Positions 6,801 through 29,586 of a stretch of 40,422 bases of DNA are shown here, in pieces. Source of the DNA: a virus (lineage: Duplodnaviria > Heunggongvirae > Uroviricota > Caudoviricetes). Below the pieces are notes generated by a model. That model was not told the DNA's origin, made no database searches, and saw nothing but the letters and a program-made list of their open reading frames with translations. The translations under genes and the position numbers were made by a program. Each line of letters begins with the position of its first letter. The stretch's first letter is position 1. Location of the stretch: IMG/VR virus record IMGVR_UViG_2563366920_000004; one strand, 5' to 3'.

Positions 6801-6999
6801 CCACAGAACCGCCACTATAAGTTCCCGCCCCAGTTACCGTATAACCGGTATCCAGTACTAGTTCTGTTACGTTACCGTTAAGGTCAGACACCTGAACAAC
6901 CAGGTCGGATTTTTTGAAAATACGGAAGGTATACGGAAATGATGTCGTAACGCCGTTACCAGTGTATTCGTTGTGGTCAACTTCGGTTGAGACCGTCAT
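3880..6999 (-). CDS. tailspike / tail fiber with T7 gp17-like N-terminal adaptor domain, sialidase-like Asp-box motifs and C-terminal intramolecular chaperone (S74-like) domain; putative endosialidase
   Basis: N-terminal ~120 aa follow the T7 tail-fiber N-domain pattern; two Asp-box-like motifs (RSGDDGKTW, SSDLGTSW); C-terminal ~150 aa resemble self-cleaving chaperone domains (TSDGTLK ... IHHGVIAQQL). Confidence 0.75.
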   Translation of the reverse strand: MTVSTEVDHNEYTGNGVTTSFPYTFRIFKKSDLVVQVSDLNGNVTELVLDTGYTVTGAGTYSGGSVVLPSPLATGWRITIDRVLDVVQETDLRNQGKFFPEVHEDAFDYLTMLIQQCFGWFRRALMKPSLLAKYYDAKQNKISNLADPSLEQDAVNNRSMRNYVDAAIAGVVGGFGWFIQYGSGAVYRTFQDKMRDAISPKDFGAVGDGINDDSTAISACLEASSPGYKIDGLGLTFKVSTLPDVSRFKNARFLFERIPGQPLFYASEDFIQGELFKITDTPWYNAWTQDKTFVYDNVIYAPFMAGDRHGVNNLHVAWVRSGDDGKTWTTPEWLTDLHENYPTVNYHCMSMGVVRNRLFAVIETRTVSGNKLQVAELWDRPMSRSLRVYGGITKAANQQVAYIRITDHGLFAGDFVNFSNSGVTGVTGNMTVTTVIDKNTFTVTTQNTQDVDQNNEGRYWSFGTSFHSSPWRKTSLGTIPSFVDGSTPVTEIHSFATISDNSFAVGYHNGDIGPRELGILYFSDAFGSPGSFVRRRIPAEYEANASEPCVKYYDGILYLTTRGTLSTQPGSSLHRSSDLGTSWNSLRFPNNVHHSNLPFAKVGDELIIFGSERAFGEWEGGEPDNRYAGNYPRTFMTRVNVNEWSLDNVEWVNVTDQIYQGGIVNSAVGVGSVCIKDNWLYYIFGGEDFLNPWSIGDNNRKYPYVHDGHPADLYCFRVKIKQEEFVSRDFVYGATPNRTLPTFMSTSGVRTVPVPVDFTDDVAVQSLTVHAGTSGQVRAEVKLEGNYAIIAKKVPSDDVTAQRLIVSGGETTSSADGAMITLHGSRSSTPRRAVYNALEHLFENGDVKPYLDNVNALGGPGNRFSTVYLGSNPVVTSDGTLKTEPVSPDEALLDAWGDVRYIAYKWLNAVAIKGEEGARIHHGVIAQQLRDVLISHGLMEEESTTCRYAFLCYDDYPAVYDDVITGQREIPLTDNDGSIIVDEDDNPVMVMEDIIERVEITPAGSRWGVRPDLLFYIEAAWQRREMDKIKERIQSLEER

Positions 7000-7102: not shown

Positions 7103-7119
7103 ATTACCTTTCGGGTAAT
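7103..7119. promoter_or_regulatory. operator-like palindrome ATTACC-TTTCG-GGTAAT
   Basis: Perfect TTACC-N5-GGTAA inverted repeat in the divergent region between the tailspike start and the SOS-box gene. Confidence 0.6.
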
Positions 7120-8222: not shown

Positions 8223-8237
8223 TTACCTTAAAGGTAA
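8223..8237. promoter_or_regulatory. operator-like palindrome TTACC-TTAAA-GGTAA
   Basis: Perfect palindrome 21 bp upstream of the 7474..8202 start codon, in the divergent region shared with the Bro-N gene. Confidence 0.6.
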
Positions 8238-8330: not shown

Positions 8331-8424
8331 ATTTACATCGCACTCCTCTTGTGCCATAGTAATCGGGCACTGGCAAAATCCAGTGCCGGGATTGGTCTCC
8401 CGGATTACTACAGAGGCACATATG

Positions 8425-8443
8425 CCGCATAAGCGGTTTTTTT
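8425..8443 (+). terminator. intrinsic terminator-like hairpin plus T7 run inside the Bro-N gene leader
   Basis: CCGC-ATAA-GCGG followed by TTTTTTT; preceded by two further GC hairpins (about 8365-8403); lies about 155 bp upstream of the Bro-N start. Confidence 0.45.
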
Positions 8444-8597
8444 ATGTGTAAAGCGCACCTATTCTATGGTGGGCTGTGTGGGGGCACCGAAAGGTGCGCC
8501 GGGTTCCTTTGTAGCCGGTAAGACCAACTCTGCACAGTTCACCACCATCTGATTGGTCTCAGCGGTGGTGATTAACCTAACTACAAAGGTGATCGCC

Positions 8598-10990: not shown

Positions 10991-13900
10991 CTATTTCATC
11001 TGCTCTTCAACTTTATTTAGTAATGGTGATATCGCCCACAGATTCTGAAAAGGTAGCATTTTACGGACAGCGTGGGTTTGCTGGCTGTCAAATTCTCCGT
11101 TAAGTACACCATTTGCAACCGTCGCGGCATCACCGCCAAGATCAAAGGTAGGACCAAGTAAAGCACCAATAGCATTACGACTCTGAAACCTTGATACCGG
11201 AGGCGCACCAAACATCGCGCCAAGACCAAACCTACCGCCGCTTATGTTCTCAACGGTATTCAGCGGCTCAGAGAGCCAGCCAAGCATTCCGCCCCGGTCG
11301 ATCCCCTCTTTCACAAGGTTATTCCAGCTGTAGTCGATATCGCGACCGCTTAACTTCTGTTTCATCATATAGACCATTGAGCCAAGCGCAATCGTGCCAA
11401 GCGCACCAAGATAGAATGAAGCATCGCCCTGCTGGATACCAGATACCAACACCCTGTTATGCTGTGCGAAGATAAACGTTTTGAACTGCGTGATCATCTT
11501 CCAGCCTTCTTTACTAAAAAACAGCGGTGTATCACCTACGCCAGGCGTTACAATCACTGAGTCTACATCTTTCAGCACTGCAGACTGGAAAATCTCTCTA
11601 GCGAAACGGTCATCCCACAGATGACTATGCCCGGTTAACAGCCCGTCCATATCCTCTCCGTGCTTCCCGAATTGCTCCCCGATTCGGCGCAGAACATCTT
11701 CATTGATGCCGACCTGTGCCATCTTCCGCATTTCACTTTTGGCGAGCGTGCCACCAGCAGAAACCTGGCGAGCCGCGTCAAGTATCCTCGACTGCACTAT
11801 CATCCCGGACCATGATTTAAGTGCGCTGTTCCACTGATTCATCAGCGTCCAGTTACCGAATTTCTGCGTCATCCAGTTCAGGCCTCGCTCAGCGGCGCTT
11901 CTCCGGCTATAGGGGTCAGTAAGATCCGCTATAGCCTTTGTACGCGTAGACAGGACATAATCAAGCCCAACGGCCATTTCTCGCAAATCCCTGGTTGCAA
12001 TTTTCACTGAGTCCATATTTTTAAGCATGCTTACCATTGGTCCGAGAGATTTTCTCAGGCCATGCTGCATCATCGGTCGCATCAGATCAGTTGCAGCGGA
12101 GACGGTCATTCCACCAAGCAAACGGAGGAAGTTAATATTCCTAGCAACTCGCCCGGCACGAACAAAGAAACTGCGTGGATCTTGAGGTGCGCCGTAAGTA
12201 CCAAGCAGTCGGTCACGCATAGCCGTAATATCCCTAATATCAGCCTCCCGTTGCTTCTCAAGAGCTGCACGTCGTTTAGGTGTTTTAGCCTCTTTTATTA
12301 GCCGGGTATATTCCTCACTAACCTGACGGATTTGCTCCCCCATATCTTTACGGCCAAACTGCGCAGTCAGCTCAATTTCTGGTGCCACCTGCCGGAGATA
12401 ACTTTCCATGATGTAGTTAACATCTGATTCAAGAAAATCTTCTATACGCTCATCAGGAATAAGCAGCGTTCGGCTTTTAGTGAAACCAGCCCGACCAACG
12501 AGTCTCTCTGGGATAATATCGGCTGGTACAAGCCCGGAAGGTGCGCCTATTATTTTATTCACGATCTCGTCAGCAGCGTCCTCTGCTTCCTCTCGGGATA
12601 GAGGCTCCATCTGCTTCAGTGCTCGCTCGCGGCTTGCATTCAGCCTTGTGGTTGAATTTGCCCGTTTTTGCAGTCGGCGAAGCTCAGAACGATATTTCCG
12701 TGGATTATCCAGCAACTCCATATGGCGCTGATAGACAGGAAGCTCACTCTTTGCCTGCGCTATATCATCAAGGCGTGTTTTAAGGTCAGAGCTTTCTTTC
12801 ATCATTCTTGCCTGAAGTTTTTCTGATGAAGTCTCGGCCAACTCTTTTTCTATTCTTGTAAGACGCGCCTGTGTGTCAGTCTCCTGAGATATAAGCTTAT
12901 TTCGTTTATCCAGTTCTTCCATGAGTAGAATTTTTTTACCAGACCATTTCTCCGCTTCAGCGATTTCACTAGCGAGAGCATCAGCGCGCGGTGCCGATTC
13001 CTCTGCAGTTTTTAGCAATGAATTTATCCTTTCAATTCGCTGACCTGCTTTGTCAGCACCTTTGGCACTAATCCCTTGTATCCAGTTGGCAATTCGCCCT
13101 CTGAATTCAGTGCGGTCGGAAAGTATCTTATCGAACTTATAAATGCGGGGAAGATAACTTTTCGCCGTCACGACATCGATATCCTCAGGAAGGATCCCCA
13201 GTTCCTGCATACGGGCTTTTGTGGTCTCGAAAATGGGGCGGATTCTGGCGGCTGCTTGTGAAACCTCAGGAATATCACTCTGATCACCACGGCGCATAGC
13301 CATGCCAACAGCTTCATTGAAATCAATAAAGCTCATCCTCTTCACGCCGCGGGCGCTGACAGATTTGCTGTACTGCTGGTAAGCATCACGAGTGGCTTCC
13401 ATCTGCTTATAAAGCATGGCGTCGTATTGCTTAATCTTAGTCTCGACTGCCGTAAACGTAGCCAACCCCTCATCATTTTTGGCGAAGAAATAGTTATTTT
13501 CGGCAAGCTGCTGGTTAATCTGACGGGAGACAAGAGATGGTGATTGCGCCAAGCGGCCAGCAGGAGTGACACTCAACGTTTTGTTAGCAAGTCCAAGTCC
13601 AGCGAGCTGTTCCTGATCGAGTGTGGTATTGAAAACCTGAGCTGCACCAATGCTTTGAGGAGAATCCATACCTCGCAAATGATTACCTACTGAGTTAACC
13701 ACTGCCTCGCGCGCGCTAGGTCCAGCAAGTAGCTGTGCACCAGCACCAAGGATCCCACCAACGAGAGCATCAACAACAACGTTCGATACGCTCTCCATCG
13801 GTGAGCGAGCTTCCTGAGTGGCCTGCAATGCGGCCTCTGAAGCAACACTGCCAGCAGCATTGGCTAAAGCAAAACGTCCGGCTGTTTCTGCAATACGACC

Positions 13901-14380
13901 GCCACGAACGACAGCGCCGAACGGAATAAACATAGAAATCGCATTGAATGGATCTGCTAATCTCATTGCTACAGAAGAGACTGTACCAGCAAATCCCAAG
14001 CCTGAATTGTATTCCATGTCAGCTCTCTGCTGATCGATTCGATGTTTAATTGCCATTGTTTCTTCAGGCGAACCGGAGTTGATAAACGAATCTGCAAAAT
14101 CTTCATAGCCTTTAATATCTGCTGCATCGTTATCAAATGGGTTATATCCTTCAATCCTGTCAAACTGACTGAAAGGAGCACTGGCAATAAAGCTACCCAG
14201 CGTGTTATCTATACGAAATGCTGCTTGTCTAGACCTTTGAACGCGTTGATCACTGGTAAATGGGTTCACAGCAGAAAGCAAAGAAGGTGTTTCCATATAG
14301 AAATTACTGTCATCAGGTGCTGCTATTTGCTGAATATCCTCGCCAAGCAACTCTTTAGGATCCTGTTCATATATCGGCAT
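10991..14380 (-). CDS. internal virion (ejection) protein, large (T7 gp16-like by position)
   Basis: 1129 aa, last large gene of the tail/ejection operon; coiled-coil-rich central region; assignment by size and synteny. Confidence 0.5.
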   Translation of the reverse strand: MPIYEQDPKELLGEDIQQIAAPDDSNFYMETPSLLSAVNPFTSDQRVQRSRQAAFRIDNTLGSFIASAPFSQFDRIEGYNPFDNDAADIKGYEDFADSFINSGSPEETMAIKHRIDQQRADMEYNSGLGFAGTVSSVAMRLADPFNAISMFIPFGAVVRGGRIAETAGRFALANAAGSVASEAALQATQEARSPMESVSNVVVDALVGGILGAGAQLLAGPSAREAVVNSVGNHLRGMDSPQSIGAAQVFNTTLDQEQLAGLGLANKTLSVTPAGRLAQSPSLVSRQINQQLAENNYFFAKNDEGLATFTAVETKIKQYDAMLYKQMEATRDAYQQYSKSVSARGVKRMSFIDFNEAVGMAMRRGDQSDIPEVSQAAARIRPIFETTKARMQELGILPEDIDVVTAKSYLPRIYKFDKILSDRTEFRGRIANWIQGISAKGADKAGQRIERINSLLKTAEESAPRADALASEIAEAEKWSGKKILLMEELDKRNKLISQETDTQARLTRIEKELAETSSEKLQARMMKESSDLKTRLDDIAQAKSELPVYQRHMELLDNPRKYRSELRRLQKRANSTTRLNASRERALKQMEPLSREEAEDAADEIVNKIIGAPSGLVPADIIPERLVGRAGFTKSRTLLIPDERIEDFLESDVNYIMESYLRQVAPEIELTAQFGRKDMGEQIRQVSEEYTRLIKEAKTPKRRAALEKQREADIRDITAMRDRLLGTYGAPQDPRSFFVRAGRVARNINFLRLLGGMTVSAATDLMRPMMQHGLRKSLGPMVSMLKNMDSVKIATRDLREMAVGLDYVLSTRTKAIADLTDPYSRRSAAERGLNWMTQKFGNWTLMNQWNSALKSWSGMIVQSRILDAARQVSAGGTLAKSEMRKMAQVGINEDVLRRIGEQFGKHGEDMDGLLTGHSHLWDDRFAREIFQSAVLKDVDSVIVTPGVGDTPLFFSKEGWKMITQFKTFIFAQHNRVLVSGIQQGDASFYLGALGTIALGSMVYMMKQKLSGRDIDYSWNNLVKEGIDRGGMLGWLSEPLNTVENISGGRFGLGAMFGAPPVSRFQSRNAIGALLGPTFDLGGDAATVANGVLNGEFDSQQTHAVRKMLPFQNLWAISPLLNKVEEQMK

Positions 14381-17127
14381 TATTTGCCCCCTGCGTATAT
14401 ATTGCTCGGAAGGTAATTGGCTGAACCATAACCGAATGGTTTGGTCAGATCTGGAGGAGTATATCCATCTTTATTGCTGAACTGCGGCAGCGGATTGCCT
14501 TCTCTCCGCACTCTAGCCTCATCAACACGCTGTTGCTGGAACTGAATGGTTTGCCTGTACATTGGAGATGTCAGCTGATCCGGCTTGAAACGAACAGGGA
14601 GACCATTTTCTCCAATATAATTTCTCGGTTCTATCGCTCCGTTTGCGTCAGGCTGTAAAACCATAACAGCATAACTCCTATCCCTTGCCGTAAGGCCATC
14701 AGAAACAAGTATTAAGTCCGTATCACTGCGAGGACCGCCAAAGGATTTTGATTTAAGCTCGCGTTTTTCCTGCTCCCACTGCCCCTGTATCCAGTTACCA
14801 GCACCATTATTTACTCCGTACAATGCCTCAGGTGCATACTTCATAACCTCTGCTTTGCCATTAACCGTAGAAACTCCCCAGGTGGTTCTGATCATGGCAT
14901 TGGTCATTTTCTCAGCCTGTTCTGCATCGCCACCTGTCTGTACAAAGTTAGCATCGTAAATTGTCTGGTAATCTCGCTGATAGGCCGCATTTGATTTTCC
15001 TGGATCGGTAATATCCGGAGACCACGAACCAAAGGAAGTCAGACTGCTGGCGTTATTTTGTGCAGCAGTTACCCTCGCCGCGACATATTTTTTGTCTCGC
15101 ATGGCAGTGGAAAGCATCTGTTTCATTCGGTCATCCTGTTGGAACACCTGACTGTAAGCCATATCAACAGCCTTATCCTCCGGCACGCCAGCGCGGGAAT
15201 AATCGTAAACCTTGCCATAAAATGCCATCGTACTTTTATCAAGTGTTGCCGCTGCCGCCGGATTATTATCGAATAACTGACCGTAGAATTTTGCCATCGG
15301 GACAACCAGCGCAGGATCTCTTGATGTTGCTCCACTGTTAAGCATTGTTTTAACCTGAGTTGGTATCATGCCGCTTTTAGTTGTGACGGTGACCAGTGTA
15401 TTGATGCTCTGCGGATCAGATATGGAAAACGAAGGCGCGATATCCTGCGCGAAATAACGGTCTACCGCTGCCTGATTGTTTTTGTCGTTCGGGTCCAGCG
15501 GGAAGTTATTTTGCATTGAAGACACGAACCTGTTTCTTCCCTGCTGAATCTCCCACTCCCTATCCATCTCTTTAAATTTGGCCTGCATTTTCTCCCAGCG
15601 TTGCTGGTTAGCAGCAAATCCAGGAGCATTTGGATCCTGTGGACGTAAACGTTCAAGAATGTCTTGTCGTCCTTCTGGAGTGAGGTCTTTAGCGGCACCA
15701 ATGACACCTCCATATTGTATCTGCGCCTGCATATCCTTCCACTTCATAGCGCCAATGCGCGGACCATTGGCCCGGATAAAATCGTCCTCAGAAGGTAACT
15801 TCTCAGGTTTCAATCCTTCATCAAGGGCTGAATATGCATCTTTAACTACGGTGCTAAGCTGGTCCGCATACTGCTGGCGGTACTGATTTCTCAGCTCATT
15901 AGCCTGCCTCAATGCCTGTATTTGCATTTGAGGGCTCATAGCATCAAATGCCGCATTGCCCGTATAACGCTTAGGTGAATCAAGGTTAGTTAGACCAAGG
16001 GCTGCCGAGATACCAGTTTCAAGCTGTTCGGTGCTATAAGGCATACTGCCATTTTCGTGTTTAATAATCCCAGCACATAAAGCAGCTAGTGTCTTTGGGT
16101 TAGAGATATCAAGCTGATCATTCTCCCCAACACCAAGCTCACCACACAATGCCCTAATATAAGCATCAGTATTATTACCATCACTAGCCGGAGCATAGCG
16201 ATTAACAATCTCGCTAACGGTGTCATAGCCTTGACGCTGGTAAGACAACATATTTTTACCCAACGCGCGGATTCCATGCTCAGGGGTAGCAAACGTTGCA
16301 AAACGTCCATCGCTACCGATCTGACCTTCCCACGGGTTAGATTTGCTCGCTTCAATATTACCAGGGTTATTATTACGTAAACCACGAGCATCCAATGAAT
16401 TACCATGTGATATTGCACGACTCACACCATCAAGATCCCCTGGCTCTCCATTAACCTGAAGAAACTCGTTGTATTTTTGAGCGATATTTCCTATCCATGC
16501 TTGCTGCCCCATTTGTTCCTTGAGCTGAGTTTTCTGCTGAACACGCCACTCATCAGGAAGCCCATGCGCATCAGCGTATTGATCAATAGATTCAAATCGC
16601 TGCTTGGCTAAATCGACAAATGCTTGGTTATCGCTATATAGCCCCGCAGACTGAGTGACAGCCAATGCATTTCCTGACAAATACGTTTGATCTTGGAATT
16701 GCTGAAACTGCCCAACTTCATATCGACGTGCCTGATTGTAATAAGACTGCATAGACTGCTGGAGTTGAAAGGATAATTTATTCCTTTCCTCACTTTCAGG
16801 GATTGAGCCTAATAATGCCTGAGCCCTTTCCTGCATATTTTTCATAACAGCGTCACTCTGACCAAGAGCGTTTTTACCCTGTTTAGAAATCAGCCCATTT
16901 TCAGGGTTGTTAATCTGGTCATCTGCAAATTGGTTAAATTGCAGTAACGCCTCCTGGGCCATAGCAACATTCGCTTTCTGCCTGGCTTCACCATATGCCA
17001 CCGCATACTGATCTGCGACATTCGCCAGCACCTGACCTGCTTGAGGAACATCGAAGGTCTGAAAACCACCGGTTTGCACACCACGACTTTGCACCTGGCG
17101 TCCGGATGTAGTAGGAACAACAGGCAT
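14380..17127 (-). CDS. internal virion (ejection) protein (T7 gp15-like by position)
   Basis: 915 aa; start/stop overlaps with both neighbours; assignment by synteny. Confidence 0.5.
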   Translation of the reverse strand: MPVVPTTSGRQVQSRGVQTGGFQTFDVPQAGQVLANVADQYAVAYGEARQKANVAMAQEALLQFNQFADDQINNPENGLISKQGKNALGQSDAVMKNMQERAQALLGSIPESEERNKLSFQLQQSMQSYYNQARRYEVGQFQQFQDQTYLSGNALAVTQSAGLYSDNQAFVDLAKQRFESIDQYADAHGLPDEWRVQQKTQLKEQMGQQAWIGNIAQKYNEFLQVNGEPGDLDGVSRAISHGNSLDARGLRNNNPGNIEASKSNPWEGQIGSDGRFATFATPEHGIRALGKNMLSYQRQGYDTVSEIVNRYAPASDGNNTDAYIRALCGELGVGENDQLDISNPKTLAALCAGIIKHENGSMPYSTEQLETGISAALGLTNLDSPKRYTGNAAFDAMSPQMQIQALRQANELRNQYRQQYADQLSTVVKDAYSALDEGLKPEKLPSEDDFIRANGPRIGAMKWKDMQAQIQYGGVIGAAKDLTPEGRQDILERLRPQDPNAPGFAANQQRWEKMQAKFKEMDREWEIQQGRNRFVSSMQNNFPLDPNDKNNQAAVDRYFAQDIAPSFSISDPQSINTLVTVTTKSGMIPTQVKTMLNSGATSRDPALVVPMAKFYGQLFDNNPAAAATLDKSTMAFYGKVYDYSRAGVPEDKAVDMAYSQVFQQDDRMKQMLSTAMRDKKYVAARVTAAQNNASSLTSFGSWSPDITDPGKSNAAYQRDYQTIYDANFVQTGGDAEQAEKMTNAMIRTTWGVSTVNGKAEVMKYAPEALYGVNNGAGNWIQGQWEQEKRELKSKSFGGPRSDTDLILVSDGLTARDRSYAVMVLQPDANGAIEPRNYIGENGLPVRFKPDQLTSPMYRQTIQFQQQRVDEARVRREGNPLPQFSNKDGYTPPDLTKPFGYGSANYLPSNIYAGGK

Positions 17128-21952: not shown

Positions 21953-22390
21953 TTAACCAGTTACTTTTGAGCGGATCGGGTACGGCGTATTGGCATCAAC
22001 ATCCAGACTGATACCCGCAGTGAATTTGCCAGCCGTTAGTGGGCCAGTTGCGACGGAGTAGTTAACACGCAGATATCGCTGAACACCGGCAGGCACCTTT
22101 GCAGAAACAACTCGTTTACCTGCTGTCAGGGCGGTCTTTGCCAGTGCGCCACTATCATAAATAGTGGTCCATGAGCTGTTATTCTCACTCGTCTGCAACT
22201 GGATGTTTACAGTTGCATCACCGCTTGCCGCGGCGGCTGCGTTAACCAGCGCCCAAAACTCAAGCGGGTAACCCACGCCGATATCACGACGTTTTCCGTC
22301 AATTGGACCGAGATCGATTACGTCAGTAGAAGCCGCGGTATTCGTAACCGCCTGAGCTTCGGAGAACATCAACAGTTTGTCGGTGATCAT
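21953..22390 (-). CDS. putative capsid decoration/minor head protein
   Basis: 145 aa Ala/Thr/Gly-rich ORF directly downstream of the major capsid gene. Confidence 0.4.
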   Translation of the reverse strand: MITDKLLMFSEAQAVTNTAASTDVIDLGPIDGKRRDIGVGYPLEFWALVNAAAAASGDATVNIQLQTSENNSSWTTIYDSGALAKTALTAGKRVVSAKVPAGVQRYLRVNYSVATGPLTAGKFTAGISLDVDANTPYPIRSKVTG

Positions 22391-22441
22391 CTTCTTTCTC
22401 CATTAGTGGGTCTGTTACGACCCACAGGTTAATAACAGGCG

Positions 22442-23434
22442 TTACACCACGCGGGCTTCTGTTTCCAGAAGCGCATCAGTTTCACGGATTGGTACACCAC
22501 GGAATGAAGTCCACCACTCGCCTTCAGTCTCTTTTACGCTGATAGCCAGAGATGTTTTCTCCAGAGATTGCAGATCAAGAGCCTGGCCTACAGTGCGGTT
22601 CATGTAGAACACCGGGCGGCCCATGCCACGGTTTGGAATGCGATGCAGTGCCTTAACCATCAACTTGGCAATATTTGCGGCAGAGGATGGTTCTGAAAGA
22701 TTGCTGACATCGATGTTTGCAATGCGAACAACATAACGCCAGTCACGCAGAGCAAGTCCGTTGTCCCATTTGTAATGGGTGCGATAACCTTCGTACTTGC
22801 CGCCATTAGCATCTTCCAGTGTCACCTGGCCTTTATCTTCCATCTGGATGCCAGCCTTCTTCCCTTTCGGGAAGATGCCATGCACGGTGTTTTCGCCCCA
22901 CACCACTAACCAGATTGAGGTGTTATCTGTACCCGTGCCACCAGCATCAATGATGTTCTGAGCATTACCCGCAGACAGGCTGGAATAGCGGGAGGACAGT
23001 CCCATAAACTGCTGAGGGTTAACGCTGGAATCACCATAAAACAGCGTCTGCGCCATCTGCTGATTCATCGCTTCAATAAATGCGCGGTCTTCAGACAGGC
23101 GGAATTCAGCGGTATTGCCGTTCAGATCAGCCAGTGACTTATCGACTTCAGCATAGGTTTCCAGCATGCCAACGGAATCGGTTACCTGCACTGTGGTTGA
23201 TTTGCTTGGCTGTACGCCATAGTTCAGCAAACGCCAGGTAGCTGAAGGTAAACCAGAACGAATGGTGGTTCGGTGTCCGGTAGGAAGGTTCCCTTCGACA
23301 AAGGGCATATCCTGAAGGATCGGGTTAGTTTGACCGAGAAGCTCGATAATCTTATCGACTTTCCCGTTTGGATCGACGCGCTTACCCCAGTCAGCCAGCG
23401 TTAGCGCAGTTAAGCCTTTAACAGCCATTGTCAT
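22442..23434 (-). CDS. major capsid protein (HK97-fold type)
   Basis: 330 aa, follows the scaffold gene; size and position typical of major capsid proteins. Confidence 0.7.
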   Translation of the reverse strand: MTMAVKGLTALTLADWGKRVDPNGKVDKIIELLGQTNPILQDMPFVEGNLPTGHRTTIRSGLPSATWRLLNYGVQPSKSTTVQVTDSVGMLETYAEVDKSLADLNGNTAEFRLSEDRAFIEAMNQQMAQTLFYGDSSVNPQQFMGLSSRYSSLSAGNAQNIIDAGGTGTDNTSIWLVVWGENTVHGIFPKGKKAGIQMEDKGQVTLEDANGGKYEGYRTHYKWDNGLALRDWRYVVRIANIDVSNLSEPSSAANIAKLMVKALHRIPNRGMGRPVFYMNRTVGQALDLQSLEKTSLAISVKETEGEWWTSFRGVPIRETDALLETEARVV

Positions 23435-23442
23435 TTCCTCTC

Positions 23443-24144
23443 TTATTTGCCATAGAGCACTTCGGCCGCACTACGCTGGCCTTCATTACCACCGGTGACC
23501 ATGCCATCTTCAGACATCGCCTTTCCGATTTTCACGAACGTTTTGACCAGATCAGGGTGATTACCCAGCCCGGTGGTGTTCAGATATTCTTTGAGTTCAG
23601 GTGTCCCGAACTGGTCAAGCGCACGCTGTGCGGCGCTAAGGTTAGAAATCAACTTGTCGCCACCGATTTCTTTGTCAGCTTTTACATCCGCAGCCCACTG
23701 CTCGGTTGTTTTCTGCCAGGCTTCTGCCTGGCGCTGCTGAACACCTGCCAGAATCTTCGGATAAGCATCAACCAGCTTTTGCGCTTGCTCGTTGGTCAGG
23801 TTAAGTTCTCGCGCCACCGGCTCGAATTCCTTCAACGCTTCTGTATCCAGCTCTACGCCTTCGGCAGCCTGAAATTCGTACTTCTCCGGCGCACCCTCTG
23901 GTTTATCGCCGTCTTTTTTTTCACCCTGCTTATCGTTTTCAGATTTTTTTTCATCATCAGGTTTATCGACATCAGCAACAGGTTGTGGCTTATCACCTTC
24001 CTGTTGTGATGGATCACCAACTGGAGCAGGGTTATCACCTGTAGGCGCTGACGGTTCTGACGCAGCCGGAGCTGCTCCACCATCGACTGGTTGCTCATTG
24101 CAAAGACGGCGATACAGCAAACGCTCAAATAAATTCATGATCAC
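23443..24144 (-). CDS. scaffolding protein
   Basis: 233 aa, acidic low-complexity helical protein between portal and capsid genes. Confidence 0.6.
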   Translation of the reverse strand: MIMNLFERLLYRRLCNEQPVDGGAAPAASEPSAPTGDNPAPVGDPSQQEGDKPQPVADVDKPDDEKKSENDKQGEKKDGDKPEGAPEKYEFQAAEGVELDTEALKEFEPVARELNLTNEQAQKLVDAYPKILAGVQQRQAEAWQKTTEQWAADVKADKEIGGDKLISNLSAAQRALDQFGTPELKEYLNTTGLGNHPDLVKTFVKIGKAMSEDGMVTGGNEGQRSAAEVLYGK

Positions 24145-24437
24145 TCCTGTTCACTGGCCTCTTTGGCCATCTTCAAATACTGTTCAGGGCAATGCGCCAT
24201 AACGCGCTGAAACAGTTCCAGCGCCAGATTGCGTTGCCCCTCATTAAATGCCATTGCCATAGCATCCATCGGAGAGATAGCGGAAAACACCCGGCCTTTC
24301 TCCAGCACCGACCAGACAACGCGACGCCCCTGTTCACTGCTCATGACAAAGCGAATGTCATCAATTTCACGCTGCGCCATGTCACGTTGCTTACGGGCGT
24401 TTTCTTCTTTCAGTTGATCGTCTTCGTAATCTGTCAT
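24141..24437 (-). CDS. hypothetical head-assembly protein
   Basis: 98 aa ORF coupled to portal and scaffold genes. Confidence 0.4.
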   Translation of the reverse strand: MTDYEDDQLKEENARKQRDMAQREIDDIRFVMSSEQGRRVVWSVLEKGRVFSAISPMDAMAMAFNEGQRNLALELFQRVMAHCPEQYLKMAKEASEQE

Positions 24438-26113
24438 TGTGATTGCCCACCCTGACCACTAACTGCATTCGCCATAGCTGACAAAACACTCGGATCCGAA
24501 GTTTTAGCTTCACTTAGCGTCTTGGCACCCTGTGCCGCCGCCATCCCCATCGCCATCATTTGTTGCTGCTGTTGTTGCTGTGCCCGTTGCTGGCGAGCCT
24601 GCTCAACCTGTTCCTGCGGAACAATGACGGTTGGAGACACTCCGGACATATCAGCGAATGCATCGATCGCCTGATCAACGTTGAGTTTGTCGAGAGCTTC
24701 TGGTTTCGCTTGCGCAAGTTGACCAATGAAGTTAACCGTGGACGCCAGACTGGACAGGCCGATAGACTTCTGCGCCTGAGCCATGACGGAAATGTATTCG
24801 ACCTTCAGGGGCATGCCTTCCATCGCGTCAGGCGGTGGCGGCAGCATGTTTTTACGCACCATCATCGAGAAAGAGCGATCAATGAGAGGATTAAGACATT
24901 CGTCGTTCAGGCGCTCCAGAACCGGCCCCAACATCAGAAGTTTTTCTTCTTTCATTTCGATCACCGCTTCCACAGGCATCGAGCGGGTATTGATGTTCTG
25001 CAACATCATGAACAGATCGACAAAGTAGGCGCTGTTAATGATTTGACGAGTGTCCTGAATGTCTGCCACCAAATCTGCTGTACTGGGGTTAACCAGATAA
25101 GCAGGCCTGAAACCATCCTGACCAGTAATCTGATCGATATACGTGATGTCGCCAGGAAGAAGGGAGGCGCGCTGATTCTTGAGGGAAGTCGGAGCAACCA
25201 TCGGCGGATTGGTGGCTTTATCAATCAACTGCGACTTGCGCTTCTGGAGAAGCTGCAATGCCTTAACAGGTCCAAGCGCCAGCATACCCGGGCATGATGA
25301 TCCATAAACATCTTCGCCGTTAACTTCCCAGCGCGGAGCCATAATTGGAAACTCATCGAATCCGGACTCACGCAACAACTTGTCGTTATCGCCACCAACC
25401 TCGTAATAAACCGATTTGAATGGCTTGTTCTTGCTATCCAGCTTCGATGTATCGCGGTCAATGTTCGGGTAAACCGAATGCATCACTTCAATCCACTTCT
25501 CGTAGGTGCCGCTTTCCCACATGCTTTTTACGGATTCGCTGACGTTATTTAGCCCGAACTCCTGAACAAGCTGACGAACAGTCATAGAGAACTTGCGAAA
25601 ACAGGTGTCCACACTGCCACGAGGTGAGTTAGCCAGGTAGTAACTGCCTATCGGGAATGGCATTGTGCGAATGATGTCCTCGTCATCCTCCAGCACTGCC
25701 ATTGCACCAGTGCTGTATGTGCCGAGGCTTCCGTATAACTGCGGCAGCGACTGATAGAGATTCGACTTATTGAACATATCGTTCATGCGGTTCTGCACCG
25801 CCTCAAGCCACAACTTAACAGGGCCATAATCCATCATTTCAGGATCTGGCGTAGCCAGGCGAAACCACGGACGCGCGGGGCTTGTGATGCCTGACATCAT
25901 GCCGCTGGCGAGAGTGCGCGCCGCCATAGTCCCGGTCGAATCAATAATGCGTGTATTGCGTCGATCGTTACGGTTGACCTCAGAAGTCAGAAAGCGGGAA
26001 CCACGCGGGTTGATGTAATCACTCAACTCGCGCCAGTGCGGCTCGAACGACTGACGCTCGCTTTCAAGTTGTGCGAACTGTTTGTTCAATCGCTCTTTAG
26101 TTGTTTCCGCCAT
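24434..26113 (-). CDS. portal (head-to-tail connector) protein, podovirus type
   Basis: 559 aa; C-terminal Gln/Ala/Met-rich tail (QQQQQQMMAMGMAAAQGA...) resembles the T7 gp8 C-terminus; GGAG RBS 8 nt upstream. Confidence 0.75.
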   Translation of the reverse strand: MAETTKERLNKQFAQLESERQSFEPHWRELSDYINPRGSRFLTSEVNRNDRRNTRIIDSTGTMAARTLASGMMSGITSPARPWFRLATPDPEMMDYGPVKLWLEAVQNRMNDMFNKSNLYQSLPQLYGSLGTYSTGAMAVLEDDEDIIRTMPFPIGSYYLANSPRGSVDTCFRKFSMTVRQLVQEFGLNNVSESVKSMWESGTYEKWIEVMHSVYPNIDRDTSKLDSKNKPFKSVYYEVGGDNDKLLRESGFDEFPIMAPRWEVNGEDVYGSSCPGMLALGPVKALQLLQKRKSQLIDKATNPPMVAPTSLKNQRASLLPGDITYIDQITGQDGFRPAYLVNPSTADLVADIQDTRQIINSAYFVDLFMMLQNINTRSMPVEAVIEMKEEKLLMLGPVLERLNDECLNPLIDRSFSMMVRKNMLPPPPDAMEGMPLKVEYISVMAQAQKSIGLSSLASTVNFIGQLAQAKPEALDKLNVDQAIDAFADMSGVSPTVIVPQEQVEQARQQRAQQQQQQQMMAMGMAAAQGAKTLSEAKTSDPSVLSAMANAVSGQGGQSQ

Positions 26114-26127
26114 TTCAATGACTCCGG

Positions 26128-26334
26128 TTACTGACCAAGCAGCGTTTTACCGCTGGTATTAGCAGTTGATGTGTCGCCCTGAGAACCGGTAAGCAGCGTA
26201 GAACTACGACCAGCAGCAGCGCGACGGCGACGAGTTTCTTCGTCGCGGGCATCAACAACGGCGGCATCCTGCTCCTGTGGTGCTGCCTGAACTTCTGGTG
26301 TTGCAGGCACTGATGGTGAGCTACCCATGCACAT
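26128..26334 (-). CDS. small hypothetical protein upstream of portal
   Basis: 68 aa; its translation-initiation context (CGGAGTCATTGAT-ATG) is nearly identical to that of the portal gene (CGGAGTCATTGAA-ATG). Confidence 0.4.
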   Translation of the reverse strand: MCMGSSPSVPATPEVQAAPQEQDAAVVDARDEETRRRRAAAGRSSTLLTGSQGDTSTANTSGKTLLGQ

Positions 26335-26424
26335 ATCAATGACTCCGTACGCAATTAAATTATTACCAATTTAACCACATATGATTTATTTATCGTAGAC
26401 AGTTGACATTTAACGCGCGAATTA

Positions 26425-26439
26425 TTACCTTTCAGGTAA
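26425..26439. promoter_or_regulatory. operator-like palindrome TTACC-TTTCA-GGTAA
   Basis: Perfect palindrome just downstream of a TTGACA hexamer, upstream of the portal operon. Confidence 0.6.
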
Positions 26440-26761
26440 CCAAAGAGTTCATTCCGGTTACTAACCTGACTGGCTTGTCGTTAAATTGAACAGGTGGAGT
26501 GAGCTTTTATTTTGAGCAGTACGGCGTATGGCACATGCGCCGATAGCGGTCTGGATGCGTTTAAGGGGCACCCTCCCTGGCTGTGGCAAACGAACCAGGT
26601 AGCCGGAATGTGCAAGTCGAGCGGTTTTATTCCGCGCACGGGGATTCACCATCCCGGCGATTCGGTGTGACGCCTCGGAAGAGACGAGGGTACAACGATG
26701 AGAGCATTTATGGAGCCGCGACAAAGTGTGGCGCCTTAACAGGCTAAGTGCTCTCAGCGTT

Positions 26762-26838
26762 GTGGCATTAGCTCAGTTGGACAGAGCAACCGCCTTCTAA
26801 GCGGTTGGTCGCAGGTTCGAATCCTGCATGCCACGCCA
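26762..26838 (+). tRNA. tRNA-Arg (anticodon UCU), phage-encoded
   Basis: Cloverleaf traced by hand: 7-bp acceptor stem GTGGCAT/ATGCCAC, D-arm GCTC/GAGC, anticodon stem ACCGC/GCGGT with loop CTTCTAA, T-arm GCAGG-TTCGAAT-CCTGC, discriminator G and encoded CCA. Confidence 0.85.
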
Positions 26839-26881
26839 GAATCACGCCTAAGGACCGTGATGCCAGAAGTTCCAGGTGCTT

Positions 26882-26923
26882 GGCGGTGATGGTTTCCCTT
26901 GAAGGACTATCACCGCCCTTTTT
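26882..26923 (+). terminator. intrinsic terminator downstream of the tRNA
   Basis: GGCGGTGAT ... ATCACCGCC stem followed by CTTTTT. Confidence 0.55.
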
Positions 26924-27001
26924 ACAGCAGGACGCCATTGCGATGACTTCATGCTGTAAACCAGTACAGCCACGGAAGGCATAACTCATTGCTTCCAGTT
27001 C

Positions 27002-27025
27002 GCCCGGTTCGCCGGGCATTTTTTT
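27002..27025 (+). terminator. intrinsic terminator 11 nt upstream of the gp49-like gene
   Basis: GCCCGG-TTCG-CCGGGC followed by ATTTTTTT. Confidence 0.7.
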
Positions 27026-27036
27026 AAGGTGAGATT

Positions 27037-27411
27037 ATGAACGACCAGCAAATCGAAAAAGAAATCGTTGAGAAAGGTAAAACGGCACCTCGTGTAACTC
27101 CTGAGAAAATTGAAGGTCTCATTTGCAGTGAGCATTTTTTTACTGCTGCGCAGGGGGATCATCAGGCTAAAGAAGATGACCTTATTTATAATCCAGAGCC
27201 TTATGTCGAAGCCACCCCTGATGCTCTGCACCTTCTCACTTTCTGCGTCCTGGTGCTGCGCAACGGCTTCACCGTCACCGGAGAGAGCGCCTGTGCAAGC
27301 CCGGAAAACTTTGATGCAGAAATTGGTCGGAAGATTGCCCGACAGAATGCTGTAAACAAAATCTGGATGCTTGAAGGTTACTTGCTGAAGCAGAAGTTAA
27401 GCGAGCAATAA
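27037..27411 (+). CDS. phage Gp49-like family protein, unknown function
   Basis: 124 aa; motif ...TVTGESACASPENFDAEIGRKIARQNAVNKIWMLEGY typical of the N4 gp49 / Sf6 gp66-like family; AAGGTGAG RBS; opposite strand to the flanking packaging genes. Confidence 0.6.
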   Translation: MNDQQIEKEIVEKGKTAPRVTPEKIEGLICSEHFFTAAQGDHQAKEDDLIYNPEPYVEATPDALHLLTFCVLVLRNGFTVTGESACASPENFDAEIGRKIARQNAVNKIWMLEGYLLKQKLSEQ

Positions 27412-27501: not shown

Positions 27502-28977
27502 TTAAGCATAGGGATCGTAATCTGTGATGGCCTTGCCTTGCTGGTTCTGCTGCCCGGGAATTCGCAGACGCTTAGACACAGGGAACGCAAACGTCAGCAG
27601 TAGCGCATCGCCTTTACCCGGTGAACGCCCAAGCCGCTCCTTGATATCTTCCTTCGGTTCGATAACGATTTTACCGTCCACTCGAACTTTGTACTCTGCC
27701 GCCGACAGGTCGTCTGCTGTTTCCTGGTCATCCAGCATGCCGCCCAGCCTCAGCCATGTCTTGCATGAATTGAACATCTCCCCACGCTTGTTGAGCATCT
27801 GCGGGTCAGTAGACGCGCCACCGAACGGAACAAGTTGCCATGTACGACCCCAGCCGTCACCGATTGACTTCAAACCGGTTCCGTAACCGAAGTCGATGAA
27901 CACCGCGTCAGCCTGATACTGGTCTTCAAAGTCAGCGATACGCTTCGCCATAATCAGATCGTCGGTAGTCTTGTTGCCAGTCCACAGCACCTTACTGTGT
28001 AGCCCCTGCCGCAGGTATATCACAGCGTCATCAACGCCGGAGTATGCCGGGTCAACGCCGATTATCACCGGAGCATGTGCAACCTGCGCAGCGGTTACCA
28101 CCCGTTTCATTGCCTCGTCAGTAAGACCGGTAGGGATAAACTGCAATTCAGATGCATCAGGGAATATGCCACGCACACGGATTTTAACGAAGTCGCTGTC
28201 TTCCCCGTAGTCATCAACCCATTTCTGCAACTGCTGTTTGTTAGTGCCTTCCACCGTCCGGCTGTCAATCTGCGCAGTTTTCCAGCGGTGTTTATATTTG
28301 CGGAAACATTCGCGAAAACGCCCGGTGTTACGTGTAGGGTTTCCGAACGCCACCCAAATAATCTCAGTGTCTTCGTCCGTAAGCGCACCCTCGGCAACTT
28401 CCCACACCAGATCCGCAATGTTCGACGCTTCATCAAACACCACGATGATGCGTTTGCGCTCGTTGTGTAGTCCGGCGAATGCCTCAGTGTTGTGCTCAGA
28501 CCAGGGTATTGCGTCAGCCCGCCACCGCTTGTCGTGCCCAGGGTCATTGCTGTACATCGCGGTAGCGGTACAGGTAAACCAGTCTTTCGTGATAGCAAGG
28601 TTCGACCACTTGATAATTTCCGGCCAGGTCTTCGTTCGTAGCTGGTTGTCGGTGTTGGCGGTCACCACGACCTTACAATCCTCGCAAGTGGACATGCCCC
28701 AGTTGATGAGCATTGAGATGAATGCGGATTTACCAATACCGTGACCAGAAGCACGTGCCAGCATAAGCGGCTGATAACGCGTCTCTGGATTCTGCAGGTG
28801 ATCACGTATCTCTCGGAACGCATCGGCCTGCCACTGACGTGGACCGGTAGCATGTGCCAGTTCAGTCCCCTCTTCCCCCCAAGGGAACGCATAGAGGGCA
28901 TAGCCAAGCGGATCGTGAGTGAACCCTGCAATATCTTCGATTAACTGCTCTTCAGGAGATAACGCTGCATCTGTCAC
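27502..28977 (-). CDS. terminase large subunit
   Basis: 491 aa; GTG start overlapping the terS stop; nucleotide-binding-like motif (GHGIGKSAF) and position between terS and portal. Confidence 0.8.
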   Translation of the reverse strand: MTDAALSPEEQLIEDIAGFTHDPLGYALYAFPWGEEGTELAHATGPRQWQADAFREIRDHLQNPETRYQPLMLARASGHGIGKSAFISMLINWGMSTCEDCKVVVTANTDNQLRTKTWPEIIKWSNLAITKDWFTCTATAMYSNDPGHDKRWRADAIPWSEHNTEAFAGLHNERKRIIVVFDEASNIADLVWEVAEGALTDEDTEIIWVAFGNPTRNTGRFRECFRKYKHRWKTAQIDSRTVEGTNKQQLQKWVDDYGEDSDFVKIRVRGIFPDASELQFIPTGLTDEAMKRVVTAAQVAHAPVIIGVDPAYSGVDDAVIYLRQGLHSKVLWTGNKTTDDLIMAKRIADFEDQYQADAVFIDFGYGTGLKSIGDGWGRTWQLVPFGGASTDPQMLNKRGEMFNSCKTWLRLGGMLDDQETADDLSAAEYKVRVDGKIVIEPKEDIKERLGRSPGKGDALLLTFAFPVSKRLRIPGQQNQQGKAITDYDPYA

Positions 28978-29570
28978 TGATTACCATCCTGACGTTCTTT
29001 GAGTCGCTTCCTGGCTGCCGCTATGCGATCAGCAATTGTCACATTCACATTAACATCCAGTCGTTCTTTGAATGCGTTGACGTCGACGTGCTTACCAATC
29101 AGTTCGAGGTTCTTCACCTTGTCAGGCCATTTAATTTTTTTGAGGATTGTCTCTATCGAATCCTCGTTCATGTTCATGATGGTCGATGACAGATCAAAGC
29201 CGCTAAGCGTAGTGCGCCAGATTTTCGGCCACTCGCGGATTGGCTTAAGGCTCCCATCGTCGTTGAGGATATCAATCACGTCCATCTGGTCGATCTCCAC
29301 CAGGCGCATGAGAACGTAATCAGCACTGACGCGCATTCGTTTGTTGCGCTCCTCCATCAACTCGGCAATCCGTTTCTGAATGCGTTCATCGCGCATCATG
29401 ACACTGGCTTTAACTGCCGCTGTATTTGGGGAGAATCCTGCATTAATCGCAGCCTGAGTCTGGTTTTCAGGCGTTTTGATGTATGACTGGCAATAAGCCT
29501 CCTGCATTGCTGTTAGTGGCTTAAATTGCGTTGATTTGCGTTTATAGGCTTTAGGTTCAGCAGGCATCAT
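28974..29570 (-). CDS. terminase small subunit
   Basis: Start moved to internal Met-27 (MMPAEPKAYKRK...) of track ORF 28974..29648; the track's TTG-initiated N-terminal extension covers a non-coding operator palindrome. Confidence 0.6.
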   Translation of the reverse strand: MMPAEPKAYKRKSTQFKPLTAMQEAYCQSYIKTPENQTQAAINAGFSPNTAAVKASVMMRDERIQKRIAELMEERNKRMRVSADYVLMRLVEIDQMDVIDILNDDGSLKPIREWPKIWRTTLSGFDLSSTIMNMNEDSIETILKKIKWPDKVKNLELIGKHVDVNAFKERLDVNVNVTIADRIAAARKRLKERQDGNQ

Positions 29571-29586
29571 AACCACCGTGGTAATA

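Follow-up and report, generated by a model that had tools for sequence, protein, structure and literature searches.

A widespread pseudoknotted RNA in a modular, apparently repressor-controlled unit beside a phage tRNA-Arg gene

Results

A conserved pseudoknotted RNA lies upstream of a phage tRNA-Arg gene

The DNA analysed here (the window) is a stretch of 40,422 nucleotides from IMG/VR virus record IMGVR_UViG_2563366920_000004, a phiV10/epsilon15-like (Uetakevirus) prophage of Escherichia coli. Upstream of its tRNA-Arg gene, within a region (26335-27036) that is 98-100% identical to phiV10, O157 typing phages 9 and 10 and many E. coli chromosomes, we found a conserved pseudoknotted RNA of approximately 178 nt, hereafter the core, which, as far as Rfam 15 and the searchable literature show, is a widespread uncatalogued RNA class. 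An earlier note on this DNA had described the tRNA, two terminators behind it and a GC-rich, gene-free stretch of about 430 bp ahead of it in which a structured RNA seemed possible. That interpretation is supported but too narrow, as the tRNA, the upstream stretch and both terminators look like one modular unit with an operator-controlled promoter; the note also missed the cassettes that take the place of the tRNA in relatives, the match of the tRNA acceptor stem to the helix that frames them, and the spread of the RNA to phages with unrelated virion modules. The upstream stretch measures 427 bp (26335-26761) and has no conserved open reading frame (ORF), the overlapping short ORFs in it (52, 54 and 87 amino acids) being unconserved in homologues. 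The G+C content of 26460-26760 is 54.8%, against 48.3% for the whole window, which places it in the top 6% of 300-nt windows, and that of the core is 60.7%.

The core was modelled with seven helices, two of which are proposed pseudoknots, at least five helices being supported by covariation (Table 1); homologues range from 152 to 184 nt and the covariance model, R1, has 162 positions. The structure was tested on an alignment of 35 sequences (A2), in which 98.4% of the cells are paired and compensatory changes occur in 11 pairs. Not one of 500 shuffles matched these values, and structures slid by 1-3 columns gave only 26-48% pairing. Helix P1 varies from CGGCG/CGCCG to CGGCA/UGCCG, and helix P7 from CCUCG/CGAGG to CCCGG/CCGGG to GCCGG/CCGGC. 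No compensatory change was seen in PK1 or P4, and PK1, being invariant, is a proposal outside the reach of covariation. The RNAalifold consensus preferred the long-range pairing GCACAU/AUGUGC over the local P1 hairpin; because P1 covaries, both were kept, the long-range pairing as a pseudoknot. Approximately 60 nucleotides, located in the junctions and the two proposed pseudoknots, are nearly invariant. Conserved G·U pairs would be A·C on the opposite strand, indicating that the RNA is read from the + strand, which is also the strand of the tRNA, the terminators and the ban operon of phage P1.

At gathering thresholds, Rfam 15 gave no match to the core across the window. Positions 26100-27100, scanned at E ≤ 10, returned nothing relevant beyond the tRNA and chance-level hits, and seven homologous loci scanned at E ≤ 0.1 again returned no match to the core. 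Of the two parts of the covariance-model scan proposed in the earlier note, the tRNA was confirmed and the upstream stretch found no Rfam family; our own model R1 scores the window copy at 143.8 bits (E = 7e-46) and finds exactly one copy per phage. The core was likewise undescribed in the full-text literature, which was searched also with conserved sequence strings and from which subscription-only papers fell outside the scope. A protein-coding reading was rejected, with stops in all six frames in four of the 35 homologues, and the length differences among homologues show no preference for multiples of three (17/9/9). Guide-like complementarity between the variable parts and the rest of the phage amounted to chance-level 11-mers only (17 versus about 11 expected). 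Together with the hairpin that follows it, the core thus bears out the structured RNA that had been suggested, on stronger evidence than was then at hand.

The core is shared by phages that are otherwise unrelated

In a DNA search with the upstream stretch alone, we obtained matches of 72-82% identity to phages that are otherwise unrelated, with unlike flanks. Homologues occur in lambdoid phages (mEp460, cdtI, 2H10, Ayreon and the Stx2c and Stx2a converting phages), in the P1 group (P1, P7, D6, SJ46 and RCS47), in epsilon15-like phages (Tyrion, PAT1 and SPN1S), in Klebsiella phages and in one phage recorded from Stenotrophomonas; these hosts of the core differ in virion modules and gene order. 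The exact 19-mer GGTAGCCGGAATGTGCAAG (26598-26616) has 23 true copies in species-representative genomes, all from Enterobacterales, and is present in at least 120 IMG/VR contigs; the 149 copies collected fall into 59 clusters at 92% identity. Among 5426 complete E. coli genomes, 1840 (34%) contain the core, with up to four copies each and 554 places on plasmids, and it is unannotated in every record listed. A tRNA gene on the same strand lies within 1.5 kb of 47 of the 152 loci, mostly directly flanking, and none is nearby in the other 105. A 19-mer match in an Oscillospiraceae metagenome-assembled genome (L017) was rejected as a chance hit, having unrelated flanks where about four such matches are expected in 596 Gb. 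A true copy is found on a 1.7-kb metagenomic contig labelled 'Bacillota' (L029), which is probably misbinned.

The unit resembles a repressor-controlled transcription unit

Positions 26403-27025 resemble one repressor-controlled transcription unit built of RNA modules. The predicted promoter has the -35 hexamer TTGACA, and its -10 hexamer and start site are overlapped by a putative repressor operator; a generic promoter scan also returned a weaker alternative, TAGACA-18-AATTAT, at 26396-26425. Among 21 operator-bearing cluster representatives of the epsilon15 type, a full promoter match, defined as TTGAC(A/T)-N15-19-TA...T, is present in 14 and a near match (TTGACC, TTGGCA) in most others; neither the spacer sequence nor the distance to the core, which ranges over 20-153 nt, is constant. 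The core of other members begins approximately 5-45 nt from the predicted start site. With an expectation of 0.03, the operator palindrome TTACC-N5-GGTAA is found ten times in the window; the corresponding site in epsilon15 bears the annotation 'repressor, lysogeny'. The copies, at 7104, 8223, 8316, 26425, 29588, 32320, 32382, 34669, 35381 and 35443, are scattered genome-wide like the C1 operators of phage P1 and presumably mark the whole repressor regulon of the prophage. Those at 8223 and 8316 lie just upstream of an isrK RNA (8367-8443, Rfam 74.7 bits) that stands beside a C4 antisense RNA (78.6 bits), a pair that looks like an immI-type antirepressor control region of phage P1 in an epsilon15-like phage; mEp460 has the same pair (L002 706-894).

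Repressor control is suggested by the other settings of the core as well. In mEp460, the cI gene with its own terminator is followed by OL-type operators (TTGC-N7-GCAA) and the promoter PL (TTGCAT-17-TATCTT), which lies about 40 nt before the core, and at the same place the depositors of Ayreon annotated a terminator followed by a promoter. The core is the first element after PL in mEp460, Ayreon, 2H10, Stx2a_1447 and mEp390, where lambda has nutL and N, and no N gene is annotated in the records of these five phages. A CI-type repressor gene in the same orientation lies directly upstream in 19 clusters representing at least four immunity types, and all seven of the upstream repressors tested carry a helix-turn-helix, with or without S24 domains. 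In phage P1, the core lies 14 nt after a tRNA-Ile gene within the C1-controlled ban operon. From these sequences we infer that in all three contexts the RNA belongs to a transcript silenced by the phage repressor; its synthesis would begin at once upon infection or induction. By eye, a short ORF of about 14 codons can be read between the core and ban in phage P1 (L003 3169-3275), with a stop codon that overlaps the ban start codon (UAAUG), suggesting translational coupling. A tblastn search with the L036-type CI repressor, concerning mutual exclusion of the element and N, found its closest relatives in the phage set to be only about 62% identical.

A hairpin, an exchangeable slot and terminator modules follow the core

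After P7 and the sequence CAAC comes a hairpin (H) that GUUG closes; its lower stem, GAGAGCAUU/AGUGCUCUC, is conserved and its tip hypervariable. Compensatory changes were found in 8 of its 16 pairs among 23 sequences, one U·G pair fits the + strand only, and the tip has been swapped as a module among different cores. Next comes a slot bracketed by the invariant helix GUUGUGG/CCACAAC. A real tRNA, tRNA-Arg(UCU), fills it in six clusters, that of the window and five others, and at least five other cassette types occur there in relatives. The exchange is well illustrated by L057 and L019, whose sequences are the same up to ...GCGTTGTGG, then part into a tRNA in one and a 94-nt cassette in the other, and become the same again at AATCACGCC. 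In L120, the slot holds a tRNA-like element with D and T arms. The commonest non-tRNA cassette consists of two hairpins with complementary loops, GCUGAU/AUCAGC, which in L107 have changed jointly to GCUAAU/AUUAGC; judging from the sequence, this loop pair appears to be a kissing-loop mimic of the tRNA elbow. This cassette, type a, lies at L002 3240-3372 and in relatives.

A small hairpin follows the slot and is kept irrespective of the slot content (Table 1). Both terminators that the earlier note had placed after the tRNA are present: terminator 1 has a 14-bp stem (26882-26917) with a T-run to 26924, and terminator 2 (27002-27017) has six G-C pairs and T7. Sequence variants of 26925-27001, between them, gave no unambiguous set of helices. 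In many relatives, the stretch before terminator 1 is (U)UGCUGUGUGUAGUCUUGGC, which is nearly the 3' half of the host small RNA RprA (L007 2131-2250, also L013, L027, L038, L058, L080, L107, L126 and L132). The Rfam RprA score of L007 is 50.2 bits (E = 0.0013), under the gathering score of 70 bits, and the scan of 26100-27100 at E ≤ 10 gave no RprA hit in the window; the relatives may carry an RprA mimic in this stretch.

Hairpin-type modules or a mini slot (GUUGUGAA...UUCACAAC) stand before the core in L018, L020, L166 and L180, and two hairpin-plus-slot units stand in tandem after it in L011, L020 and L024, so neither the order nor the number of modules is fixed. In L055, L068 and L111, a hairpin and an rrn-type boxA, approximately 120-130 nt after the 19-mer, take the place of the hairpin and slot modules after the core. 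The boxA consensus GCUCUU(U/A)A is absent from the unit of the window and was found among relatives only in these three; in L111 it reads UGCUCUUUAACAA. Downstream of the element in Tyrion, at a distance of a few hundred bases, is an Rfam int-alpA RNA (L005 3208-3272), which scores 44 bits where the gathering score is 35.8.

Three relatives bear on the question of function. A deletion in epsilon15, which is a viable phage, spans the core through terminator 1; all that is left is P1 and the beginning of P2/P3, joined to the 3' half of terminator 1 (L004 2545-2620). The junction lies within UUCCCUUGAUGCU, a sequence found in relatives in both the P3 loop and the terminator-1 loop, which indicates that recombination from loop to loop removed the core, the hairpin, the slot and the small hairpin together. 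In the Klebsiella phage SopranoGao (L008/L160-L161), the element stands at the genome end, beyond the lysis genes; it converges with the integrase gene and has no co-oriented gene downstream. Reading the alignment by eye, we saw a promoter-like TTGCAA-18-TATATT and also an inverted repeat directly upstream. In an integrated SopranoGao, transcription of the element would run outward in the direction of the attachment site. The ORF that follows the unit in L016 comes with an operator and a promoter-like sequence of its own.

Table 1. Features of the unit and its neighbours in the window
Feature	Position	Strand	Basis or remark
Predicted promoter: -35 TTGACA 26403-26408, 17-nt spacer, -10 TACCTT 26426-26431	26403-26431	+	sequence reading
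Putative repressor operator TTACC-N5-GGTAA, overlapping -10 hexamer and start site	26425-26439	.	palindrome count, epsilon15 annotation
Leader	26440-26515	+	alignments; length and sequence vary by lineage, partly common to epsilon15
Conserved pseudoknotted core RNA	26516-26693	+	covariance model R1, covariation
P1	26522-26526/26538-26542	+	covaries
PK1 (GCACAU/AUGUGC), proposed	26531-26536/26608-26613	+	essentially invariant
P2, enclosing variable P3	26550-26554/26595-26599	+	core helix
P4, enclosing variable P5, proposed	26616-26618/26656-26658	+	C-G to U-G changes only
P6	26641-26644/26652-26655	+	core helix
PK2	26647-26650/26664-26667	+	covaries, CACC/GGUG to AACC/GGUU
P7	26673-26677/26685-26689	+	covaries
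H hairpin CAAC-G-AUGAGAGCAUU...(variable tip)...AAGUGCUCUCAGC-GUUG	26693-26762	+	last G is G1 of the tRNA
tRNA-Arg(UCU) with encoded CCA, in the slot	26762-26838	+	ARAGORN, Rfam tRNA
Conserved small hairpin AUCACG-CCUAAGGAC-CGUGAU	26841-26861	+	directly after the slot in 27 of 59 cluster representatives
Single-stranded 'seed-like' stretch and terminator 1	26862-26924	+	homologous family-wide (UUGGCGG...CCGCCCUUUUUAC)
Second conserved non-coding module, ending in terminator 2	26925-27025	+	27 distinct sequences, upstream of different ORFs
124-aa ORF, N4 Gp49 / Sf6 gene 66 family; neighbour outside the RNA family	27037-27411	+	Pfam PF13876, E = 1.8e-34
Portal gene	24434-26113	-	opposite strand to tRNA-Arg
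491-aa ORF, taken as large terminase	27502-28977	-	homologous annotated genes in epsilon15 and Typing phage 9

The tRNA-Arg gene and neighbouring genes

ARAGORN found a single tRNA in the whole window, a tRNA-Arg with the anticodon tct at position 35, and the Rfam tRNA model (RF00005) scores it at 73.3 bits against a gathering score of 29. Its 3' end reads ...ATGCCAC-G-CCA, so that the CCA is encoded and the tRNA is complete, as had been noted. Also as described, it lies on the strand opposite to the packaging and head genes; its place is mid-phage, with the terminase gene on one side and the portal gene on the other. The best chromosomal match, K-12 argU included, is 85.9% identical and spans positions 7-77 only, which means that the 5' acceptor strand of the phage tRNA differs. 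The first four pairs of the acceptor stem (GUGG.../...CCAC) are those of the slot helix GUUGUGG/CCACAAC, explaining why it is unlike argU, a difference that the earlier note had pointed out without this reason. A complete, high-scoring and CCA-ended tRNA at this location and with this distance from argU supports the earlier note's view that it is phage cargo rather than the remnant of an attachment site; taken alone, it is ordinary phage cargo.

Over the 36 long ORFs of the window, the codon count that the earlier note had called for gave 8.1 AGA and 5.7 AGG codons per 1000. The averages for the E. coli K-12 genome are about 2 and 1. Because the two codons are frequent in the window by comparison, a role of the tRNA as a rare-codon decoder is plausible. 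AGA and AGG cluster in tail, tailspike and internal-protein genes and in several early genes (e.g., 3880-6999 and 10991-17127), with 16 AGA codons in the ORF at 3880-6999, and hardly occur in the genes for head, portal and terminase (21953-26113 and 27502-29576). This split between gene blocks suggests different origins or different expression demands. The ORF in the place of 27037-27411 changes from relative to relative.

Discussion

Proposed processing of an early RNA transcript

In our judgement, there is about an even chance that the unit is a stand-alone, repressor-controlled early RNA gene and that cleavage of its transcript at the tRNA-shaped module sets free a stable core that acts in trans. 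In the mechanism we propose, the repressor would leave the operator over the -10 hexamer and host RNA polymerase would transcribe the whole string of modules. RNase P and the enzymes that mature tRNA 3' ends would cut at the tRNA, or at the tRNA-shaped stand-ins in relatives, and would thereby free a core-plus-hairpin RNA of approximately 250-320 nt, a mature tRNA-Arg that could decode AGA and AGG, both enriched in the tail genes, and small RNAs with their 3' ends at the terminators. The freed core would persist as a stable RNA and bind a conserved host machine in trans. Since tRNAs and tRNA mimics accompany the family so consistently, our best guess is a machine connected with tRNA or translation. 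The role would be accessory rather than essential, since epsilon15 is viable after its deletion. Such processing explains the presence of an RNase P-type substrate in the slot even where there is no tRNA, and it explains the exchangeable, bead-like modules and the terminators that travel with the cassette; it also fits SopranoGao, L016 and epsilon15.

Several points weigh against this proposal. The promoter, start site, processing and stability are all predictions, and the host machine is a best guess by association with tRNAs. Variant L186 would disrupt PK1. The loci were partly fished with the 19-mer of the core, which inflates the apparent conservation. We therefore repeated the scan with an independent anchor; of the 141 copies that it anchored (about 137 of them full-length), 128 have the exact 19-mer GGUAGCCGGAAUGUGCAAG and the rest depart from it at 1-4 positions. 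This second anchor corrects the bias only partly. Finally, a lambdoid arrangement in which the unit and two strong terminators stand between PL and all early-left genes, with no N annotated, is easier to understand if the core is an antiterminator.

Alternative explanations

An antiterminator of this kind would be a cis-acting, processive antitermination RNA, with an action like that of put or EAR but no relation to either in sequence or fold. While still nascent, the core would attach to the RNA polymerase transcribing it and allow read-through of the terminators that follow, leading to expression of the downstream ORF in the window, of the early-left operon in phages without N and of ban in phage P1, with the tRNA and small RNAs as leader cargo. 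We regard it as possible, if rather unlikely, that the core acts in this way. The core sits at the position of nutL and N in lambdoid phages without an annotated N, with one or two strong intrinsic terminators between it and the first early-left ORF; in the window, the terminators directly precede the ORF with no intervening promoter seen by eye, and three clusters have the hairpin and rrn-type boxA after the core. EAR also acts from the middle of an operon, where the phage P1 copy of the core is found. How lambdoid phages without N achieve early antitermination is treated as an open question (PMC12315714). However, HK022 has both putL and putR (PMC9378689) whereas the core is present in a single copy per genome with none in the PR operon, and the covariance model found no second, diverged copy near PR in mEp460 or the window. 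Also at odds with an antiterminator are SopranoGao, where no downstream gene shares the orientation, L016, with a separate promoter-like sequence for the ORF that follows, and epsilon15, still viable after losing the core. The terminators accompany the cassette in every context, which suggests that they define RNA 3' ends, and read-through leaves the tRNA-shaped cassettes without a role. The broader claim, that the core is a new RNA-only antiterminator that replaces N in N-less lambdoid phages, including Shiga-toxin phages, and serves ban in phage P1, is held just as tentatively.

The nearly invariant nucleotides in the junctions and proposed pseudoknots, the length of 150-185 nt, typical of complex aptamers and of ribozymes of glmS or VS size, and the alternative pairings CAAC/GUUG versus GUUGUGG/CCACAAC would also suit a ligand-sensing, riboswitch-like aptamer or a self-processing ribozyme that gates or cuts the early transcript. 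We find this improbable, as there is no expression platform over the core, the terminators being 190-400 nt downstream with independent modules between, no consistent class of downstream genes that hints at a ligand, and no match to a known ribozyme or riboswitch model even at E ≤ 10. It is more improbable still, to the point of being hardly credible, that only the tRNA matters and the upstream stretch is a spacer, a decayed gene or a DNA site such as a recombination or packaging signal. The stretch is unannotated in any record, or crossed by short hypothetical ORFs in some, as such a reading would have it. Compensatory changes and strand-specific G·U pairs argue for an RNA instead, as do the identity of 72-82% across phages with unrelated virion modules, gene order and flanks, the lack of a conserved reading frame and the 105 of 152 loci that have the core without a nearby tRNA. 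Processing of an early transcript remains the interpretation that we favour.

Significance and comparison with known systems

The core has gone unannotated in heavily studied sequences, among them phage P1, the Stx2a and Stx2c converting phages and 34% of complete E. coli genomes. It is a concrete candidate for how lambdoid phages without N pass their early-left terminators, and the family would offer a genetically tractable E. coli system for ornate phage RNAs linked to tRNAs. A slot that takes cassettes closed by one invariant helix may also interest RNA engineers.

Like put of HK022, the core is a non-coding RNA located right after a repressor-controlled early promoter and before terminators in N-less lambdoid phages, with no dedicated phage protein nearby, a feature of location seen in mEp460, Ayreon and 2H10. 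The put RNA is approximately 70 nt long, with two stems and a short triplex, and is present in two copies, at PL and PR (PMC9378689). In contrast, the core is not a two-stem RNA, its model spanning 162 positions and its fold comprising seven helices, two of them proposed pseudoknots; it has a single copy in mEp460 and in the window and is also found in P1-like, epsilon15-like and other phages and at the end of an operon.

GOLLD and ROOL, RNAs of 500-800 nt from Lactobacillales, rumen and lake samples, are likewise large and intricate prophage RNAs that often lie beside tRNA genes, an adjacency seen at 47 of 152 core loci, whereas the core is only about 175 nt long and comes from phages of Enterobacterales. 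They are reported to form homo-oligomeric complexes (PMC12286853). Rfam returned no GOLLD or ROOL match to the core, on the assumption that both are among the 4227 families. In a wilder version of the broader antiterminator claim, the core might be the E. coli-phage counterpart of these tRNA-associated ornate RNAs.

The 'species 1 and 2' RNAs of T4 are stable non-tRNA RNAs that are co-transcribed with phage tRNAs and released by tRNA-processing enzymes; they are smaller and belong to a virulent phage, and the likeness is by analogy only. C4 of P1 and P7 and the CI RNA of P4 are regulatory RNAs that RNase P cuts from longer transcripts by way of tRNA-like features. Unlike the core, they are antisense immunity RNAs of 70-90 nt, with no similarity to it, and the window has its own C4 RNA elsewhere (8462-8549). 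EAR of Bacillus, a pseudoknotted RNA of approximately 120 nt that lies inside an operon and promotes read-through of distal terminators, is a precedent for the mid-operon copy in phage P1, but it comes from another phylum and is not phage-borne, and in the region of the core the Rfam scans gave only the tRNA and chance-level hits. The unit is a member of none of these systems, and the features that it shares with them are those of position only.

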